A stretch of 6,511 nucleotides of DNA, taken from IMG/VR virus record IMGVR_UViG_2541047126_000018, one strand, 5' to 3'. Position 1 is the first letter of the stretch. Each line of letters opens with the position of its first letter. The position numbers and the translations under genes are program-made. The notes below the pieces were generated by a model. That model saw nothing but the letters and a program-made list of their open reading frames with translations. It made no database searches and was not told where the DNA came from. This stretch comes from a virus. Lineage: Duplodnaviria > Heunggongvirae > Uroviricota > Caudoviricetes. Shown piece after piece: positions 1 to 6,511 of this stretch.

Positions 1-120
1 CTTCGCGTATCCTTCCCGCGTGTGGCGGTCTATCGTTCTGATTGCCACCTTTAAGGTGTGCTCAGTCATGTCTAACGCTTTATATTTTGGCTCTGTTCTG
101 TCTCTGCGTTTTTGGGTCAT
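1..120 (-). CDS. Hypothetical protein, N-terminal 40 codons only (gene runs off the left edge)
   Basis: Minus-strand ATG at 120-118 preceded by GAGAGG about 9 nt upstream; open frame MTQKRRDRTEPKYKALDMTEHTLKVAIRTIDRHTREGYAK continues to position 1 without a stop. Not in the supplied ORF track because it is incomplete. Lies immediately after the iteron array. Confidence 0.35.
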   Translation of the reverse strand, partial: MTQKRRDRTEPKYKALDMTEHTLKVAIRTIDRHTREGYAK

Positions 121-132
121 TTCTCGCAACCT

Positions 133-322
133 CTCACTTTTTCGCCTCACTTTTTCAAGCGTCTCACTTCGTCGCAGTTGGGATTTTCGGTTTTTCTATG
201 TGTGTGTTTCATAAGTATTTTTTTACCCCTCACTTTTGAGGATGTATACAGGTCGAAAAGTGAGGGAGAGCGGGCTAATTTTGGCCCTCTTTCTATCCCC
301 CTCGCTTTTGCTCCTCACTTTT
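133..322. repeat. Iteron array with AT-rich spacer; putative origin of replication downstream of rep
   Basis: Direct copies of CTCACTTTT or close variants at 133-141, 146-154, 163-170 (CTCACTTC), 229-237, 301-309 (CTCGCTTTT), 314-322, plus an inverted copy AAAAGTGAG at 256-264 forming an inverted repeat with the 229-237 copy; AT-rich stretch about 181-226. The last copy overlaps the rep stop codon (321-323). Confidence 0.55.
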
Positions 323-1721
323 ATAGCGGCGCTACATCATCCCCATCGATACGAATAACCCCATCTTTTTCCAGCTTGTACAGCCAGCGCCGGAAGTTTT
401 TCATTTCATACCCCAGCTTTTTCATGTCATCACGTAACAGCGGGATCGTGCACTTGTCGCCGTTCTGTGTGCGTGAACGGATGCACCCCCATAGCGCGGT
501 ATGGTTTTCCGTCTTGTTCCCTGCCTCCTCGATGCGCTCCAGTTCAACAGGAGGGCGCGGATCATCCACCACCACCAGCAACGTGATTAATTCACCGTCA
601 GCGTCGGTAAAAAGCTCCACCACGCGTAAGTCATATGCGGCTTCTTTGAGTTCCTCCGCGTCCTTCATTTTGGTGCATGAGATAACCAGCGCTTCGCTTC
701 CTGCGTCCTCCCTGCGTATCCGGTATTCAGCATCCAGCGAAGCACGAAATGCACTGGAACCGCGCGCGCCTTTCGTCTCATCCTTGCCGGAATGGTGAAC
801 CACCAGCACCGTGGCCCCTGTGCGTCGTTTCAGTTCGTCACAACCACGGATAAACGCCCCCATATCACGGGAATCATTTTCATCATTCCCACCAAAGCAA
901 CGCGCCAGCGTATCCAGAATAATCATGCGTACAGGTTTACCCGTTTCCCGCTCCACCTGACGGGCAGCGATAACCATTTCATCAACATCAAGCGGGGCAG
1001 CCGGAAAGATGGGGCGGTTTACCAGATACAGATTTTTCACCTGCTCATCGTGCACAACCTCCCAGGCTTTTACACGACGCGGAACACCTATACCGCCTTC
1101 ACCAACCACATAGAGAACCGCACCATGTGCAACCCTGCGGCCTCCCCACTGGCGACCAGTGGCAACATGGCACGCCCACGATCCGGCAAGGAATGATTTA
1201 TAGGACCCGCTAGCCCCGTATATGCTGCATAGCGATACCGCCGGAATAATCCCCTTAACCACGTAATCCAGTTGCGTGTCGTATCCGGTAGATCCAACGC
1301 TCATCGGTAGCGTGGTTTTTCGCTGGTGGTTTTTTTCTTCCGCCGGCTCTTTCCCGCGCACCCGTTCCAGGTATTCGCGCCAGTTCTCCCGCATATGGCT
1401 GTGCATCCCTTCGGGGTAATAATTCGCATCAGTTACACCCGCCGCCGCCAGCTTGTGCGCAATGGCATTAATATTTGATGGCCTGATGTGGCCTGCCTTG
1501 TACAGCCGGACACAATAGCGCCCCTCGTCGATGATTCTCAGTTCTGCCAGTTCATCCAGTTGATCATCAGCCAGCACAACGGGAGGCACATTATCGCCAG
1601 CCAGTCGCCCGTCCTGTTCCTGCCACTGTTTCGCATGTGCCCAGGCATCACTACCCGCAAAAATAATGACTTCGGTCATCTTGTCGTAAGGCTGTTTTTT
1701 TAAGTTCGGTGCGCTTTTCAT
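321..1721 (-). CDS. Replication protein, RecA-fold (AAA_25 / RepA-like) helicase-type ATPase with an N-terminal domain of unassigned type
   Basis: 466-aa ORF; deviant P-loop GASGSYKS, Walker B-like VRMIILD, and VLVVHHSGKD resembling the HH..K motif of RepA/DnaB-like RecA-fold ATPases; SD AGGGG about 7 nt before the ATG; ATGA overlap with the upstream ORF; iterons immediately downstream. Family assignment is from motif recall, not a search. Confidence 0.8.
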   Translation of the reverse strand: MKSAPNLKKQPYDKMTEVIIFAGSDAWAHAKQWQEQDGRLAGDNVPPVVLADDQLDELAELRIIDEGRYCVRLYKAGHIRPSNINAIAHKLAAAGVTDANYYPEGMHSHMRENWREYLERVRGKEPAEEKNHQRKTTLPMSVGSTGYDTQLDYVVKGIIPAVSLCSIYGASGSYKSFLAGSWACHVATGRQWGGRRVAHGAVLYVVGEGGIGVPRRVKAWEVVHDEQVKNLYLVNRPIFPAAPLDVDEMVIAARQVERETGKPVRMIILDTLARCFGGNDENDSRDMGAFIRGCDELKRRTGATVLVVHHSGKDETKGARGSSAFRASLDAEYRIRREDAGSEALVISCTKMKDAEELKEAAYDLRVVELFTDADGELITLLVVVDDPRPPVELERIEEAGNKTENHTALWGCIRSRTQNGDKCTIPLLRDDMKKLGYEMKNFRRWLYKLEKDGVIRIDGDDVAPL

Positions 1722-2017
1722 TTCTTGCCCCTGAATCCGTTAACCATGGTTTTCAGCTTCTGGATGTTTGCCCGTGCCCTGGCGTTGCTGGTGGGCACGT
1801 TATGCGGCGCGGTCTGTACCAGAGAAAAATCACGCCGGAACTGATAAACAGGCATCACGCAATCATATTCGTAACCTTCACGGCGGTAGGTTACGCGCCG
1901 TTCTTCCACGCCCTTAATCATTACCGTGCCGCCGTACTGGTCGCGGTAAATATCACCGCGCGTAAATTTAGGGTGAGTGTTGCCACTGGCAGTTAAGCCA
2001 GAATATTTAAGTTTCAT
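1718..2017 (-). CDS. Hypothetical protein, 99 aa, translationally coupled to rep
   Basis: Complete ORF; GGAGA about 9 nt before the ATG at 2017; its stop overlaps the rep start (ATGA at 1718-1721). No motif recognised. Confidence 0.6.
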   Translation of the reverse strand: MKLKYSGLTASGNTHPKFTRGDIYRDQYGGTVMIKGVEERRVTYRREGYEYDCVMPVYQFRRDFSLVQTAPHNVPTSNARARANIQKLKTMVNGFRGKK

Positions 2018-2022
2018 TATTT

Positions 2023-2256
2023 TTATTCTCCGGTGTGCTGTTCTTTATATCTGTCGTGCAATAGATCTATTTCTTGCAGTTCCATTATTACAGGCTCAAG
2101 AAGCGTTATTAATGCCGTGGCAATTCTTGATTTTTGTTTGTCGCGTTCATTGTCGCCAAGTGTTTCAAGCCATATGCGCAATATTTCCATCATGTTTTCA
2201 CTGTGAGAAAGTGCAAGAAATGCGCGGTCTATTGTTTGGTGGTAAATATCACGCAT
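2023..2256 (-). CDS. Hypothetical protein, 77 aa, predicted helical
   Basis: Complete ORF; GAGGA about 8 nt before the ATG at 2256; start overlaps the stop of the upstream 154-aa ORF by 8 nt. Confidence 0.55.
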   Translation of the reverse strand: MRDIYHQTIDRAFLALSHSENMMEILRIWLETLGDNERDKQKSRIATALITLLEPVIMELQEIDLLHDRYKEQHTGE

Positions 2257-2713
2257 GGCTTACATCCTCAGGAAATTTTCTTCTATAACGCGCCTCTGCC
2301 ACATATTCCGCATAATCGGCGGCGATATTCAGTACATCAAGCCCCGTTGATTTATATTCTCTCGTGGAAAGTAAGAAAAAAGCCGCTCTAATAAGTTCTG
2401 GCATTGACGAAAGCGCATCAGCCGCATCATCAGGAACGCCGGAAAATTCCTGTTTCAGGGAATTAAAACGATCATCACGCATAACCCCCCCATTTTCACA
2501 ATCAGCAATCAGGATAGCTTTGGCCTCATTCAGCGCCGTATCAGCACTAAATTGCATGACAGCCAGTGAGTGAGGAACGAAAGCACCGGCATATTCTGTT
2601 TCGCTGGTGGCGTGCTTATGTGCCCTGTCCGCGATAACAGAAATATCAATCAGCGCGTGCATCAGCGTTTTGATGGCTTCGGCGGCTGCGTCCGGTGTGG
2701 TTTTATTGTGCAT
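2249..2713 (-). CDS. Hypothetical protein, 154 aa
   Basis: Complete ORF; AGGGGA about 7 nt before the ATG at 2713; overlaps the upstream ORF by 11 nt; position before the replication gene recalls the small genes preceding the replication gene in P4-like elements, but no homology is claimed. Confidence 0.65.
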   Translation of the reverse strand: MHNKTTPDAAAEAIKTLMHALIDISVIADRAHKHATSETEYAGAFVPHSLAVMQFSADTALNEAKAILIADCENGGVMRDDRFNSLKQEFSGVPDDAADALSSMPELIRAAFFLLSTREYKSTGLDVLNIAADYAEYVAEARYRRKFPEDVSHA

Positions 2714-2915
2714 AAAGCATCCCCTGAATATTCGTGTTAATCATTCCGGCACGTTTTGTGATTTCCTGTAATGATTCCCTTGTGGCGACAATTGCTTCAT
2801 CTGGTAAGTGGTAATTACACACCACGCGACCTTTATCCACATTGACCAGTAGCTGCCCTGTGAATTTCTCACGAAACTGAATGCGGTTAAGGTCAGTAAG
2901 TGACAGATTAATCAT
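2703..2915 (-). CDS. Hypothetical protein, 70 aa (start moved to the internal ATG at 2915)
   Basis: Track ORF 2703..2957 trimmed: the ATG at 2915-2913 has a consensus SD AGGAGGTG 4 nt upstream and sits 2 nt after the stop of the upstream ORF (ATGATTAA junction); the 2957 start has no SD and would overlap the upstream gene by 50 nt. Confidence 0.6.
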   Translation of the reverse strand: MINLSLTDLNRIQFREKFTGQLLVNVDKGRVVCNYHLPDEAIVATRESLQEITKRAGMINTNIQGMLYAQ

Positions 2916-3111
2916 GGCGCACCTCCTGACGAATACGGGCGGCAAATACAGCAACACAACCTGACGGGCAACGGCTACGCGCTTCGCGTTCCGTCCAGGC
3001 GGTTACGTGGATGATTTGAGATTCTCCGGCACTCAGGGCCAGAAAACGCCAGATGTATTTATTCAGGTTGTGCGAGTCCCGCCCTTGCGGGTGTGTGGTA
3101 TGATTTAACAT
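2908..3111 (-). CDS. Hypothetical protein, 67 aa, first gene of the replication-side operon
   Basis: Track ORF 2908..3606 trimmed to the internal ATG at 3111-3109 with GAGGT SD; the longer version would run through the divergent promoter region and the RHH gene on the other strand. Confidence 0.5.
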   Translation of the reverse strand: MLNHTTHPQGRDSHNLNKYIWRFLALSAGESQIIHVTAWTEREARSRCPSGCVAVFAARIRQEVRHD

Positions 3112-3190
3112 AGCTACCTCGATACTGTTGCTATCGTTGGTTGTTAGACGCCCTGCATGTGTGCCACCACTGCGGGGCGTTGTTATTTGG

Positions 3191-3301
3191 TGCATCGCAC
3201 CATCTGTTTTTAACCTATCAGCAAGTGAATCGCACTTCAAGCCTTTTCTCTGAATTTTTTTTGTGTATACTGAATCGCACCAACTTAGAGAGGATTCAGT
3301 A
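3191..3301. promoter_or_regulatory. Divergent promoter/operator region between the RHH gene (+) and the small-gene/rep operon (-)
   Basis: Three direct copies of the 10-mer TG(A/C)ATCGCAC at 3191-3200, 3226-3235 and 3271-3280; plus-strand -10-like TATACT at 3266-3271; candidate minus-strand promoter TTGAAG (plus 3235-3240) with 17-bp spacer to TAGGTT (plus 3212-3217); inverted repeat CTGAATC/GATTCAG (3269-3275 / 3293-3299) flanking the RHH SD. Confidence 0.4.
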
Positions 3302-3481
3302 ATGGCAACAGGTTCAACAAATAATAAGTCGCAACAGTTAAATGCCAGATTCCCGCATGATGTTGTTGCAGACTTAGAAAAAAATTTAGATGAAGGTGAA
3401 AGCAAAGCGCAATTTATAGTTACTGCCGTTAAAGGCGAAATCAAACGCCGCCAGCGCCGCAAGGCCAAAGAGCAGGAATAG
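3302..3481 (+). CDS. Ribbon-helix-helix (CopG/Arc/MetJ-type) DNA-binding regulator, 59 aa
   Basis: ATG at 3302 with SD AGAGAGGA 7 nt upstream (the track's 3263 start is a GTG without SD); the segment QLNARFPHDVVADLEKNLDEGESKAQFIVTAVKGEIKR fits the beta-strand/helix/helix RHH pattern; basic C-terminal tail; only plus-strand gene in the element. Confidence 0.65.
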   Translation: MATGSTNNKSQQLNARFPHDVVADLEKNLDEGESKAQFIVTAVKGEIKRRQRRKAKEQE

Positions 3482-3569
3482 CCCACCAGCAAGCCAGCAC
3501 ACTGAGCACATTGCCCACCAGACAGCAAATCGCTATGATGTTCGGGCTTATGTTTAGTGTTTTCCCATT

Positions 3570-3598
3570 GGCGACCGCCACAGGTCGCCTTTGTTTTA
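3570..3598 (+). terminator. Rho-independent terminator downstream of the RHH gene
   Basis: Stem GGCGACC (3570-3576) / GGTCGCC (3583-3589), loop GCCACA, followed by TTTGTTTTA (3590-3598). Confidence 0.55.
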
Positions 3599-3615
3599 TG
3601 TGTCATATGTTCCCC

Positions 3616-3840
3616 CTACGCTGCCTTACCTGAATTAATACGATCCCGGCTTTTAACCCATTCCATAACCTCGGAAAGCAGCCAACCTACTGAACGACCA
3701 CCCAGATTACGGCGTGACGGGAAATTCCCTTTTTTCTCCAGTTCGTAGCGTGTAGTGCGGCACACTCCTGTTAACTTACGGCATTCATCCTCACGGATTA
3801 CGCGATCTGATAGTGATTGAAATTGTGTATTTTGATTCAT
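3616..3840 (-). CDS. alpA: AlpA-family (MerR-like HTH) prophage transcriptional regulator / excision activator
   Basis: 74-aa ORF; segment CRKLTGVCRTTRYELEKKGNFPSRRNLGGRSVGWLLSEVMEWV matches the AlpA HTH signature (...GxSRST.Y.L...G.FP.P..LGGRSV.W...EV..W...) from memory; located downstream of a P4-type integrase. Confidence 0.8.
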   Translation of the reverse strand: MNQNTQFQSLSDRVIREDECRKLTGVCRTTRYELEKKGNFPSRRNLGGRSVGWLLSEVMEWVKSRDRINSGKAA

Positions 3841-3875
3841 AAAAAAACGTCCTCGAACGTTGCCGAACGAGGACG
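3841..3875 (-). terminator. Terminator/attenuator-like hairpin plus U-tract between the cargo gene and alpA (minus-strand sense)
   Basis: 8-bp stem CGTCCTCG (3848-3855) / CGAGGACG (3868-3875) with 12-nt loop; on the minus strand it is followed by 7 U (plus A7 at 3841-3847) and then directly by the alpA ATG (3840); the GAGGA in the 3' arm is the only SD-like element for alpA. Confidence 0.5.
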
Positions 3876-3902
3876 ATTCTAGGCGGTAGTAAAACGCCGT
3901 TT

Positions 3903-3935
3903 GTGTGATATCACACTACCAGCACGTGATATCAC
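3903..3935. promoter_or_regulatory. Paired palindromes, candidate operator in the cargo-alpA intergenic region
   Basis: Perfect 14-bp palindrome GTGTGATATCACAC (3903-3916) and second copy of the core GTGATATCAC (3926-3935), the latter overlapping the cargo stop codon; minus-strand -10-like TAGAAT (plus 3876-3881) nearby. Confidence 0.4.
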
Positions 3936-4705
3936 TTTTTACGTTTTTGTTGAGATTCACGCCCCAAATACTTTTGCCATGTCTGCCAATGTGTTTTTGG
4001 AAATTCTATCCCTCTGGATGCAGCTATAGAATCAATTAAATCTGCTATTTTAGGTAATGATTCCGTGTCCAGGTCTACATCACCCATTTCTGGAATAAGT
4101 TTAATTAAAGAGTAAATAACCTCATTCCTTTTTGACGATGCTTTTGGGCTATCTTCTGTTATCTTCGGGAAGTCTCCCGTATTTTTTATATTATCTAAAT
4201 CACTAGCCATCACACACAAATAGTTAACATCAAATTCATAACCACCCTTACAAAAAACATACATGAGATTATCATCACCATACTTATTCGTAAGATGAGA
4301 ACATTTTATATATTGTCTCATGCTAAATTCGACATCAGCAAAAACATATGCCGGAGTATAATAAAACCCTGATAAGCTGCTAACATAATAACATTTGATA
4401 GAATTCCCTACAGGACCAATAATGGCACTATCTAAAAATTCAGTGTCACCAGTTAAACCAACTGTAAAATTACTTCCAAAAACAGCAGATTCATCATTGA
4501 AAGGATATTTTATTAATTCTTCCTCATTACAACCATTGATAAAATGACATAATGAAAAATTGAATTTTTTAGCATCAATTTTTGGTATATATACAGAAAT
4601 ATTAAGAGCACCTATATATGCGTAATGATAAAGATCTTTTATTGCACAGCCTAACTTTTCTGCCGCTTCAGGTAACGGATAATAGAGTCTTTTAGGTAAT
4701 TTCAT
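3932..4705 (-). CDS. Hypothetical low-GC cargo protein, 257 aa, translationally coupled to the integrase; candidate accessory/defence gene
   Basis: Complete ORF; ATG at 4705-4703 overlaps the int stop TGA (4704-4702) as ATGA, with SD GAAGGTGG inside the int 3' end; GC by eye about 30-35 percent versus about 50 percent in int and rep; no catalytic motif recognised; terminator follows. Confidence 0.8.
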   Translation of the reverse strand: MKLPKRLYYPLPEAAEKLGCAIKDLYHYAYIGALNISVYIPKIDAKKFNFSLCHFINGCNEEELIKYPFNDESAVFGSNFTVGLTGDTEFLDSAIIGPVGNSIKCYYVSSLSGFYYTPAYVFADVEFSMRQYIKCSHLTNKYGDDNLMYVFCKGGYEFDVNYLCVMASDLDNIKNTGDFPKITEDSPKASSKRNEVIYSLIKLIPEMGDVDLDTESLPKIADLIDSIAASRGIEFPKTHWQTWQKYLGRESQQKRKK

Positions 4706-5925
4706 TTGGCCACCTTCAGCATAACAATATTTTCATGATTTCCAGCCAGCACATCGAGGCGCTCAACCCATAGATTAAGAGCGTCACGTTTTGCATCAAG
4801 ATAACGGGAGTGATTATAGACTCGTTGCATTCCTGGCAACTGGTGCGCGGTAAGCTGCTCCACAACATGCGGTTCCACGCCTAAATCGTTCAGCATCGTT
4901 GTAAACGTGTGCCGGATGTCGTGCAACGTCCAGGGGGCTTGATTAATGCGTCTGTGTGCCGTTCTTCCGTACTCTGATACGGATGATTGCCCTTTCAGTT
5001 CTCCGAGCAATAAGCCCGTGTGCCTGTTCTGCTCCACCAGCTTCATGACAAACGGCAAGATCGCTTCCGGTATTGGCCTGAATATTGCTACCTTCGTTTT
5101 GCTGTGTTCTTTCGGCACGGTCCAGAGCATTTCTTTAAAATCCCATTCCTGGACCTCAGAGCGTCTTAGCTCAGTGGTACGACATCCGAAGACAATCAGG
5201 AGGCGAATCAGGGCGCTGTAGTACGGTGGGTAAATTTTTTCATCAAGGGCGCGTAGTAATTCCCCAAGCTCCTTGTTTGTTAGTACGCGCTCGCTTATTT
5301 CTGCTTTTTTCCCAACATCACCGACAACCATATCATCAAGAACGTTGCTGATTGCGTATCGTCGTTTTCGGCAGTACTTAAGCGCCTGTTTGCATACCTG
5401 TAGCAAAAATCCGGCTGATACCGGATTACGCTTAGCAAGCTGGTCAAAACAGGCCAGCCAGTGGCGTAGCTCGCATTTTTCCAGTGGCATAGCTCCAATC
5501 TGGCTAATTATGTGTTTATTGATCCGGCTTTTCAGTGATTCGTAGTCAGTGCGCTTTTCCTTTGCGTACGATTCAAGCCAGTAAGTGAGCGCTTCCTTAA
5601 CCGTCACGGGGGCTAACGCGTCCTGTACAGCATGATTAAGTTCATAGCGCGGATTTTTCCCCTCAGCCAGCCATGCGCGACATTGCGACGCTTTTTCCCT
5701 GGCTGCTTTCAGGCTCAAATCTGGATAATTTCCCAGCCTCAGACGTTCAGGTGATATCTGCCTACCAGTTCCGGACCTGTAAGTGAAATACCAGGTTAAC
5801 AGGCCATTGGTTGAATGCCTTACGCTAAGGTTGCCACCATCATTAAAAAAGGTGCTTTTTGTGGTTGGTGATCCGCTTAATTTTCGTAAAAGAGTGTCGC
5901 TAAGTCTATGAATTGCCCTGCTCAT
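4702..5925 (-). CDS. int: Tyrosine recombinase / integrase, P4 family (DUF4102-type N-terminal arm-binding domain)
   Basis: 407-aa ORF; N-terminal NDGGNLSV...LGNYPDLSLKAAREKA matches the DGGGLYL...LG.YP..SL..AR pattern of P4-type integrases; box I-like CRTTELRRSEV; box II LHDIRHTF...LTAHQ...RVYNHSRY with the catalytic Tyr candidate. Confidence 0.93.
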   Translation of the reverse strand: MSRAIHRLSDTLLRKLSGSPTTKSTFFNDGGNLSVRHSTNGLLTWYFTYRSGTGRQISPERLRLGNYPDLSLKAAREKASQCRAWLAEGKNPRYELNHAVQDALAPVTVKEALTYWLESYAKEKRTDYESLKSRINKHIISQIGAMPLEKCELRHWLACFDQLAKRNPVSAGFLLQVCKQALKYCRKRRYAISNVLDDMVVGDVGKKAEISERVLTNKELGELLRALDEKIYPPYYSALIRLLIVFGCRTTELRRSEVQEWDFKEMLWTVPKEHSKTKVAIFRPIPEAILPFVMKLVEQNRHTGLLLGELKGQSSVSEYGRTAHRRINQAPWTLHDIRHTFTTMLNDLGVEPHVVEQLTAHQLPGMQRVYNHSRYLDAKRDALNLWVERLDVLAGNHENIVMLKVAK

Positions 5926-5946
5926 GTTTCGTGTTTCCGGTCATCA

Positions 5947-5974
5947 AAATTAACTACACCATTGACTACACCGT
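5947..5974 (+). repeat. Direct repeat A1 (AAATTAACTACACCATTGACTACACCGT) containing two ACTACACC octamers 12 bp apart
   Basis: Read directly; ACTACACC at 5953-5960 and 5965-5972; near-identical copy at 6179-6206. Confidence 0.8.
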
Positions 5975-5988
5975 GCATCGTACAAGGG

Positions 5989-6236
5989 CGAACTGTGACG
6001 AACAAGGGCGAACAAGAAAAACGAAATTATCCTTTATAATCATAGAAATAAATTAGATGCCCACACCATGACGAACACCCACGAACACTAACTGATAAAT
6101 AACTATCATTTATAACATTTCATTGATTAGTCTTTATTTTTCACTATGTTACAAATAACAACTCCGTCAAAAACAGCGAAATTAACTACACCATTAACTA
6201 CACCGTTTCACGAACAATATCGAACAACCACGAACA
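5989..6236 (+). repeat. Eight same-orientation CGAAC(A/T) sites in three clusters with 10-bp phasing; candidate integrase arm-type sites or iterons
   Basis: CGAACT at 5989; CGAACA at 5999, 6009, 6072, 6082, 6211, 6221, 6231; within each cluster the spacing is exactly 10 bp; a 12-mer ACAAGGGCGAAC is duplicated at 5982 and 6002. Confidence 0.75.
6179..6206 (+). repeat. Direct repeat A2 (AAATTAACTACACCATTAACTACACCGT), second copy of A1, 232 bp downstream
   Basis: Read directly; ACTACACC at 6185-6192 and 6197-6204; followed by the CGAACA triplet at 6211-6236, the same arrangement as A1 plus its triplet. Confidence 0.8.
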
Positions 6237-6395
6237 AAGATCAACACGCTTTAACCGTTATCATTTTCCGGCCATCCGTTATGAAGCTGGTGGATGTTCC
6301 CCGATATGGGTATCCCCACCTACCTGGCTTTTTTTCCGGTTAAATGTTAATCAGGCTGGTGGCCTTTACATACCCTTGATCACGGTAATGATGAT

Positions 6396-6511
6396 TCAGG
6401 TGCGTACCTTTTCCCCAGTGGGGTAAAAGCTCCAACCGTAACGATGTTCGTTGTGGTTGCCTTGATGGTCTGCGTGGTCATTATGACCATTCAGAATTTG
6501 AAGGGTGATGT
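6396..6511 (-). CDS. Possible 3' end of a flanking gene (His/Asn/Asp-rich C-terminus); strand ambiguous
   Basis: Minus-strand frame is open from the window edge to TGA at 6398-6396, giving ...ITLQILNGHNDHADHQGNHNEHRYGWSFYPTGEKVRT; the antisense plus frame from ATG 6444 gives a hydrophobic MFVVVALMVCVVIMTIQNLKGD with no convincing SD. Only one can be real. Confidence 0.25.
   Translation of the reverse strand, partial: ITLQILNGHNDHADHQGNHNEHRYGWSFYPTGEKVRT

Follow-up and report, generated by a model that had tools for sequence, protein, structure and literature searches.

The 6,511-nt stretch analysed here (the window), taken from the IMG/VR virus record IMGVR_UViG_2541047126_000018, belongs to a Gram-negative phage-inducible chromosomal island (PICI) that carries an integrase of the broad P4-type family. 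Its genes, int, alpA and a replication module in one orientation, are ordered as in other Gram-negative PICIs, and the full-length relatives that occupy the same chromosomal site, at yljB, are 9–15 kb long and carry terS and capsid genes. Parts of the window match ~1,880 complete Escherichia coli genomes, and a comparison with phage records gave no match. The P4 genes sid, psu, delta, epsilon, cI RNA immunity and alpha primase are all missing from the Pfam families of the relatives, many of whose genes have no Pfam hit. The integrase encoded beside the attachment region is heterobivalent, with separate N-terminal arm-binding (Arm-DNA-bind_3, E=2e-16) and C-terminal catalytic (Phage_integrase, E=2e-17) domains, and it shares 78% identity with the Int of a sister island at phoQ and 22% with the Int of P4. 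For AlpA, identity is 43% with Vis, the excisionase of P4, and 31% with TorI. The region from 5926 to about 6280 is very probably the complete attP of this PICI, in which pairs of 12-nt repeats (doublets) would be the arm-type sites of Int and 10-bp-phased repeats are predicted to be bound by AlpA. The features concerned are the following:

3616..3840, minus strand: alpA, encoding a 74-aa winged-helix protein, proposed excisionase and regulator (Pfam Phage_AlpA, E=3e-16)
4702..5925, minus strand: int, encoding a tyrosine integrase of 407 aa (Arm-DNA-bind_3 at residues 8-95, Phage_integrase)
5949..5972, minus strand: int-proximal doublet of 12-nt units, GGTGTAGTYAAT twice on the int strand; proposed Int arm-type sites
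5987..6014, minus strand: proximal phased triple, TTGTTCGC, TTGTTCGT and CAGTTCGC on the int strand; proposed AlpA (excisionase) sites
6015..6071, no strand: AT-rich spacer of the proximal arm, with the conserved block CTATGATTATAAAGGA; the spacer is kept in relatives
6070..6087, minus strand: phased pair adjoining the core, GTGTTCGT twice in 10-bp phase; proposed AlpA sites
6093..6113, no strand: core (identity block), TGATAaATAACTATCATtTAT, with the crossover within 6099-6109
6114..6184, no strand: AT-rich spacer of the distal arm, with one weak match to the integration host factor (IHF) consensus at 6116-6128 (minus strand)
6181..6204, minus strand: int-distal doublet of 12-nt units, GGTGTAGTTAAT twice on the int strand; proposed Int arm-type sites
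6209..6236, minus strand: distal phased triple TTGTTCG, with a degenerate fourth site at 6241-6246; proposed AlpA sites

The repeat pattern is confirmed and cannot be put down to chance. ACTACACC occurs exactly four times in the window (5953, 5965, 6185 and 6197), that is, as the two octamer pairs with 12-bp spacing that the first-pass annotation of this DNA had described; shuffling gives an expectation of 0.10 copies, and four or more were reached in 0 of 200 shuffles. The full repeat unit of the doublets is 12 nt long, ATT(A/G)ACTACACC. On the plus strand CGAACA lies at 5999, 6009, 6072, 6082, 6211, 6221 and 6231, and three such sites had been attributed to each of the two modules formed by a doublet and the phased sites that follow it. 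This holds for module 2, whereas in module 1 the first phased site (5989) is CGAACT, so that the triple exists there only as the pentamer CGAAC. Pairs of exact CGAACA at exactly 10 bp number four in the window, against none in 2000 first-order Markov simulations, and 10-bp pairs of any hexamer never exceeded one in 300 simulations; all 10 plus-strand CGAAC pentamers of the window fall within 10-bp-phased arrays. The modules stand 232 bp apart in direct orientation and are 74% identical over a 73-nt alignment. The two additional phased sites (6072 and 6082) and the AT-rich stretch that had been reported between them are both present, the GC content falling to 23–25% at 6080–6169, and the degenerate fourth site of the distal arm is TCAACA at 6241. 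Read on the int strand, the phased sites amount to eight GTTCG, two plus three in the proximal arm and three in the distal arm.

The crossover core was located by comparing the window with attL and attR of a sister island integrated in RM6927 and with the empty attB of K-12. RM6927 has one island, between clpS and yljB/cspD, whose int end matches window positions 4754–6113 at 99.7% and whose far end matches 6093–6511 at 99.8%. The latter segment also matches, at 99.8%, many chromosomes of O157 and other Shiga toxin-producing E. coli (STEC), where it lies beside clpS at the PICI end remote from int. The four sites read as follows:

attB (K-12): ...ctccaca TGATAgATAACTATCATcTAT cgttgg...
attL: ...ctccaca TGATAgATAACTATCATtTAT aacatt...
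attR: ...cactaac TGATAaATAACTATCATcTAT cgttgg...
window, the attP form: ...cactaac TGATAaATAACTATCATtTAT aacatt...

A core of 21 nt is common to attB, attL, attR and attP, and its two marker bases are distributed reciprocally (g..t in attL, a..c in attR), which places the strand exchange inside ATAACTATCAT (6099–6109). Sequence to the left of the core is found at the int-proximal end of integrated islands and sequence to the right at their far end. The int-proximal arm is thus 5926–6092, with module 1 and the pair at 6072/6082, and the int-distal arm is 6114–~6280, with module 2; its outer limit comes from the attP of a closely related island (L111, described below), whose homology with the window stops near 6278. 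The alignment of related attachment regions, which the first-pass annotation had recommended, therefore confirms its proposal that the modules flank the crossover core of an intact attP-like site. In K-12 the core overlaps the last 8 nt, with the stop codon, of yljB, a gene of 24 codons between cspD and clpS. As the target is the 3' end of a small protein gene, no tRNA or tmRNA is expected beside the integrase, and the scans of the window for tRNA, tmRNA and Rfam families found none, in agreement with what had been noticed by eye.

Since the core joins the two ends of the island, the window does not represent a single integrated copy; it therefore holds either an excision product (a circle or a replicating concatemer) or the point at which two tandem copies meet, which bears out the earlier suggestion of an excised or circular form or a junction. 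We consider an excised circle or replicating concatemer more likely than a chromosomal tandem. The att region is matched in ~940 of 5,426 complete E. coli genomes and the junction in 368, with a median of two separate halves; it is contiguous in the chromosomes of none of the 5,426. Exact matches to the Int, 257-aa and RepA proteins were found in single integrated islands only, and searches for the exact attP junction in IMG/VR, GTDB species representatives and JGI metagenomes found none. The only other attP of the yljB type that was found is in NZ_CP148328.1 (L111), a closed circular record of 10,790 bp filed as the non-mobilizable plasmid pZ1323HEC0475-3. This is an excised yljB-type PICI, with int, alpA, a primase and a capsid-protease fusion, whose attP is intact across the record origin. 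It answers the earlier recommendation to look for a circular form in so far as a sister island bears the same attP, not through the molecule from which the window derives. The two attPs, 87% identical overall, align without gaps and with each site at its corresponding position; matching bases number 21 of 21 (core), 36 of 36 (doublets), 61 of 64 (phased sites) and 177 of 218 (remainder).

Two related loci bear on junctions of this kind. The sister PICI at phoQ/roxA (Int 78% and AlpA 70% identical) integrates at the 3' end of phoQ, with a core of approximately AATATGTCC; it has unchanged ACTACACC doublets in both arms and phased hexamers GAAACA/GGAACA. In strain NCCP 13894 (L002, NZ_CM167691.1) two identical copies of this PICI, at 7256–17692 and 18466–28902, meet in an attP-type internal junction, so that either real chromosomal tandem satellites occur in this family or a replicating concatemer was assembled into the chromosome. 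In Shewanella sairae (L102), which has doublets 275 and 41 bp upstream of int, the chromosomal side of the fis-type core carries a second, co-oriented arm doublet; this suggests an attP-type or tandem junction or the remnant of an earlier island.

The question of which protein binds which repeat was approached through 80 loci, from Shigella to Shewanella, that encode Int relatives of 43–78% identity and of which 79 include enough upstream DNA. In 72 of these 79, the top-scoring direct repeat of the 140 bp preceding the int ATG is spaced by exactly 12 bp and lies 30–60 bp from the start codon. Its sequence falls into classes, namely GTGYAGT (that of the window), GTRTATCA, TGTATAAAC, GTGGGGTA, GGGGTACAT, GTGTGTAGC and GTATTGC, and the N-terminal beta-strand region of Int varies with the doublet class, while near-identical AlpA proteins are found with three or four different classes. 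Pairwise comparison of 58 loci, whose pairs are not phylogenetically independent, showed that the doublet class was shared in 375 of 375 pairs with an Int N-domain (residues 25–70) at least 75% identical, including 73 with AlpA below 65%, whereas it was shared in just 2 of 190 pairs that combine an AlpA identity of 85% or more with an Int N-domain identity below 60%. Several separate lineages in this set are discordant between Int N-domain and AlpA. The doublet does not follow the specificity of the core, for the 40 loci with the same fis-type core have seven doublet classes, at 134–158 bp from the core (mostly 135–138). Where a locus reaches the far end of the island, as in L032, L097, L105 and L110, a second co-oriented doublet is found ~85–95 bp from the other copy of the core; the int-distal doublet of the window is likewise at the far end of integrated islands. 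In the window the repeats, unlike the core in sequence, occur on both sides of it, with doublet centres ~140 bp (proximal) and ~91 bp (distal) from the core centre; their conservation in L111 is 100%. The arm consensus of another P4-family integrase, TGKTGGTATC, resembles the doublet. Taken together, the comparisons argue strongly that the doublets are Int arm-type sites, which the N-terminal domain of Int would bind. Some relatives (L115, at ~60–100 bp upstream of int, and likewise L064 and L082) have three tandem 12-nt arm units instead of two (GTGTGGTCAGTT x3, TGTATAAACATT x3), and the number of arm half-sites is therefore not fixed at two per arm.

For the phased sites, the closest precedent is the KplE1 prophage, in which the mapped TorI sites are CAGTTCGC, CAGTCCGC, CAGTTCGT, TGGTTCGC and CAGATCGT, 8-mers of the form (C/T)(A/G)G(T/A)(T/C)CG(C/T) in 10-bp phase, and the order is core, a pair of recombination directionality factor (RDF) sites (I1/I2), an RDF triple (I3–I5), the IntS arm sites and the intS ATG (Panis et al. 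2010, PMC2951348). The sites of RDFs (excisionases) usually take the form of direct repeats spaced by one turn of the helix, with repression of int as an additional role in KplE1 and P4. In EcCICFT073, overexpression of AlpA leads to excision and replication and activates its own promoter, leaving int expression unchanged. It is the match to TorI sites in sequence, phasing and order that leads us to read the phased GTTCG arrays, on balance, as putative AlpA (excisionase) sites. The window thus has a Phage_AlpA gene together with eight phased GTTCG sites, and covariation with AlpA is mixed. In L111 the triple at 5987–6014 is conserved; L115, which combines the AlpA of the window (71/74 residues) with a different Int N-domain, keeps GTTCG, and its doublet becomes GTGTGGTC.

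A further pair of such sites precedes alpA:

3849..3873, minus strand: hairpin upstream of alpA followed by a run of seven T (A run at 3841-3847), with a CGAAC pair at 3854 and 3864

This pair is the sixth 10-bp-phased pair of the window. The hairpin and T run resemble a terminator and stop 8 nt short of the alpA start codon; the probable ribosome-binding site falls in the 3' half of the hairpin. The same alpA module, with the hairpin, occurs in L115; the hairpin is flipped in several fis-site islands and absent from L112 and L113. It may be the point at which AlpA controls its own expression. Many fis-site relatives likewise keep a hairpin at the alpA leader, in which two (C/T)GAAC units often run in the opposite orientation. 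Further upstream of alpA are two perfect copies of the palindrome GTGATATCAC (3905–3914 and 3926–3935), 21 bp apart, and similar palindrome pairs precede alpA in L034, L040, L042 and L044. Their form suggests an operator at which a dimeric protein would regulate the alpA promoter, and helper-phage control may be exerted here.

Several observations weigh against this picture of doublets bound by Int and phased sites bound by AlpA. L113 has an AlpA helix-turn-helix like that of the window together with GTTYC sites, as in the phoQ-type island, and L112, with the same AlpA DNA-binding region, lacks the phased pair in front of alpA. A 58-nt block upstream of the doublet is correlated both with AlpA (Spearman 0.68) and with the Int N-domain (0.49), the discordant classes score alike in this block comparison, and L077 and L079 are themselves discordant. 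Excisionase sites in both arms are unusual, those of TorI, Xis and Cox being in one arm. The lack of phylogenetic independence among the pairs applies to the covariation as a whole. No good IHF consensus is present in the spacer at 6015–6071 and none that convinces elsewhere in the arms, the scan having returned a single one-mismatch match to WATCARNNNNTTR, at 6116–6128 (minus strand), which is not conserved in L111; nor does the proximal arm contain a sigma-70-like promoter for int. In some distant relatives the spacer appears by eye to have a perfect IHF consensus. A promoter candidate in the distal arm, TTGACG-16-CATAGT (minus strand, 6170–6143), which would read into int across the core only in the attP form, was dropped: such matches occur at chance level (2 found, 1.7 expected), L111 does not keep its -10 hexamer, and L002 keeps neither hexamer.

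The first-pass annotation had assigned the motifs the other way round, with phased CGAACA as Int arm-type sites and the ACTACACC doublets as AlpA sites. The arm sites P'1–P'3 of lambda do stand in tandem at about one helical turn, and the study of helper-embedded PICIs (HE-PICIs; PMC10111431) left open whether Int, AlpA or another protein binds their doubled motif. However, the class of the doublet follows the Int N-domain and not AlpA in the pairwise comparison, the phased motif stays GTT(C/T)N across Int classes, the doublets of P4 are annotated as arm repeats, and TorI sites are GTTCG at 10-bp phase; this arrangement is thus quite improbable, and the assignment should probably be reversed. 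The main alternative accepts the doublets as Int arm sites and has the phased GTTCG bound by a protein other than AlpA, such as a host regulator of the OmpR/PhoB type or another island protein. Response regulators of this type bind direct repeats of 10–11 bp period, the covariation with AlpA is mixed, and the motif core GTTY hardly varies between widely different AlpA alleles; moreover, the fis-site phased unit GCTGTTCATAG resembles the TorR 'tor box' consensus, CTGTTCATAT. We nevertheless consider such a binder unlikely, given that the phased sites agree with the mapped TorI sites in number as well as in sequence, phasing and order, that a spacing of one turn in direct repeat is the usual form of excisionase sites, that L115 keeps GTTCG together with the AlpA of the window, and that a phased pair stands at the leader of alpA, whose product autoactivates. 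A single host regulator would also be hard to reconcile with an element that crosses genera, from Escherichia to Shewanella.

A further rival reading is that assembly created the attP junction, or even the window as a whole, as a chimera. The sequence is mosaic, drawn from two islands that reside together in O157:H7 genomes: positions 1–3051 match the phoQ-site island at 99.9% and 2908–6113 the yljB-site island at 99.8%, so that the replication half is phoQ-type and the int-alpA half yljB-type, with the joint in a shared 144-bp Icd-like stretch. At 99% identity or more this joint is contiguous in none of the 5,426 complete E. coli genomes, and the exact att junction is missing from the three collections named above. 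Both a recombinant satellite and an assembly join at the repeat are possible explanations of the mosaic joint, and the left-hand mosaic could be an artefact without affecting the att site. The junction at 6093–6113 is a different matter: attL and attR share only 11 identical core bases, too few for an assembler to join, and the modules are only 74% alike, so that the junction requires real reads containing attP; an independent closed circular record carries the same attP. A chimeric origin of the att site is accordingly improbable. Short phased direct repeats in an AT-rich region also resemble the iterons of a replication origin or a partition site, and P4 has ori/crr repeats near its attP. 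This reading, which had been named beforehand as one that could overturn an attachment site, is extremely improbable, because all integrated copies have the full length of the island between the modules, one at either end, and because they flank a demonstrated crossover core; in addition, doublet sequence varies together with the integrase and independently of the replication protein, RepA-helicase and D5-primase replicons both occurring with these arms.

With Int on the doublets and AlpA on the phased sites, the model that we propose is one in which the N-terminal domains of an Int tetramer would bind the co-oriented 12-nt doublets (GGTGTAGTYAAT when read on the int strand) and connect the arms with the core, in the manner of lambda and P4. 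AlpA, as an excisionase of the Vis/TorI type, would bind the eight 10-bp-phased GTTCG sites head-to-tail, bending the arms and directing the reaction towards excision. With 27 bp between the end of the proximal arm and the start codon of int, Int and AlpA bound there would probably also regulate this gene.

The architecture is ordinary for the P4/KplE1 type and close to that of published related PICIs. P4 (NC_001609) has doublets annotated as 'attP arm sequence repeat' at 3942–3965, beside the int ATG, and at 4151–4174, beyond the core at 4078–4097, which correspond to the window doublets at 5949..5972 and 6181..6204, respectively. In both elements a doublet of 12-nt arm repeats stands tens of bp from the int start and a second, co-oriented one past a core of ~20 bp, the distances between doublet and core centres being 134 and 75 bp in P4 and 140 and 91 bp in the window; P4 also has four 10-bp-phased (G/A)TCCG units between the core and the proximal doublet, and its Vis is the relative of AlpA mentioned above. 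Apart from the distant integrase, P4 differs in its arm motif, TTGGGGGCAT, in the sequence of its crossover core and in an inverted arm copy over the int start codon, which the window does not have. The target of P4 is a leucine tRNA gene and not yljB. A 12-bp-spaced doublet, TAGGCCCAttgaTAGGCCCA, also lies ~45–65 bp upstream of intA in CP4-57 of K-12 (L020), with an inverted copy nearer the ATG, and the doublet layout thus extends to distant P4-type integrases in K-12. As a test case for the assignment of binders, this TAGGCCCA doublet (12-bp spacing, upstream of intA) was set aside, since both proteins differ from those of the window and it does not discriminate.

The attL of KplE1/CPS-53 (PMC2951348) has the same succession as the proximal arm, with core, RDF pair, spacer, 10-bp-phased RDF triple, Int arm sites and int ATG, the same RDF core GTTCG, an identical site, CAGTTCGC, and the int promoter region embedded in the arm. 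In contrast, its TorI sites are described on attL only and the window has a second triple in the distal arm; KplE1 further differs in its target, the tRNA gene argW, in an IntS arm motif that includes TAAA, and in its distant proteins (Int 21% and TorI 31% identical to their counterparts). The attPs of HE-PICIs (NAR Genom Bioinform 2023, PMC10111431), which belong to the same integrase clade, have a tandem doublet, tgTGTATTGCantgTGTATTGCa, twice and co-oriented, at 81 and 132 bp from the attP centre. The GTATTGC class (L105, L107 and L109) is the motif of that study, where it was reported for HE-PICIs only and without naming the binding protein, whereas here each Int class, including that of the fis-site PICIs, has its own doublet at the same place. 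Lambda shares the heterobivalent integrase, arm sites in both arms, head-to-tail excisionase repeats one turn apart and AT-rich bending regions, but it has five arm sites (2+3, against 2+2 with 12-bp spacing here), Xis sites in one arm only, against putative excisionase sites in both, and well-defined IHF and Fis sites, against no clear IHF site here.

What is modestly new is the covariation argument for the doublets, a line of reasoning from sequence comparison by which the doubled motif of a PICI attP would be recognised as the arm site of its integrase. The exact integration site and core are now fixed for a very common satellite family of O157 and other STEC, and the excised or tandem state of the sequenced molecule is a sign of satellite activity in the source sample. 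Such data could be used to annotate island ends, to design attP/attB PCR assays of satellite induction and to obtain orthogonal Int/attP pairs as genetic tools. A bolder generalisation, which we advance only tentatively and hold to be less probable than its negation, is that one 12-bp doublet per arm constitutes a readable recognition code throughout the P4/PICI integrase clade, with its class set by the N-terminal beta-sheet of Int and independent of the core and the AlpA allele, and that AlpA occupies phased GTTCG in both arms and at the alpA-leader hairpin, coupling excision to its own expression by hairpin remodelling. If this were true, the doublet code would answer the question of the HE-PICI binder, and arm specificity could be predicted and re-engineered from sequence.

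Elsewhere the window encodes a replication protein and several small proteins:

321-1721, minus strand: open reading frame (ORF) for a RepA-type helicase, from Pfam

The small ORFs are annotated as DUF4222 and Icd-like in relatives, and all ORFs of the window are on the minus strand. Between int and alpA, an ORF of 257 aa without Pfam family (3932–4705, minus strand) shares bases with the stop codon of int. The O157 islands at yljB have it, RM6927, L111 and L112 do not, and L115 has an ORF of similar size (239 aa); the 257-aa ORF is an accessory cargo gene.

Beyond the distal arm, the block at 6320–6508, which has no Rfam match, is 86% conserved in the phoQ-site island despite the different att cores. 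It includes a 22-nt imperfect inverted repeat (6460–6504) and an inverted CGAACA at 6445–6450. The latter was considered as an att site and is probably unrelated, since the phoQ-type island keeps the block and its own phased sites are not CGAACA. The same block occurs twice in the capsid-forming island of RM6927 (L003, 5136–5554 and 5901–6075).

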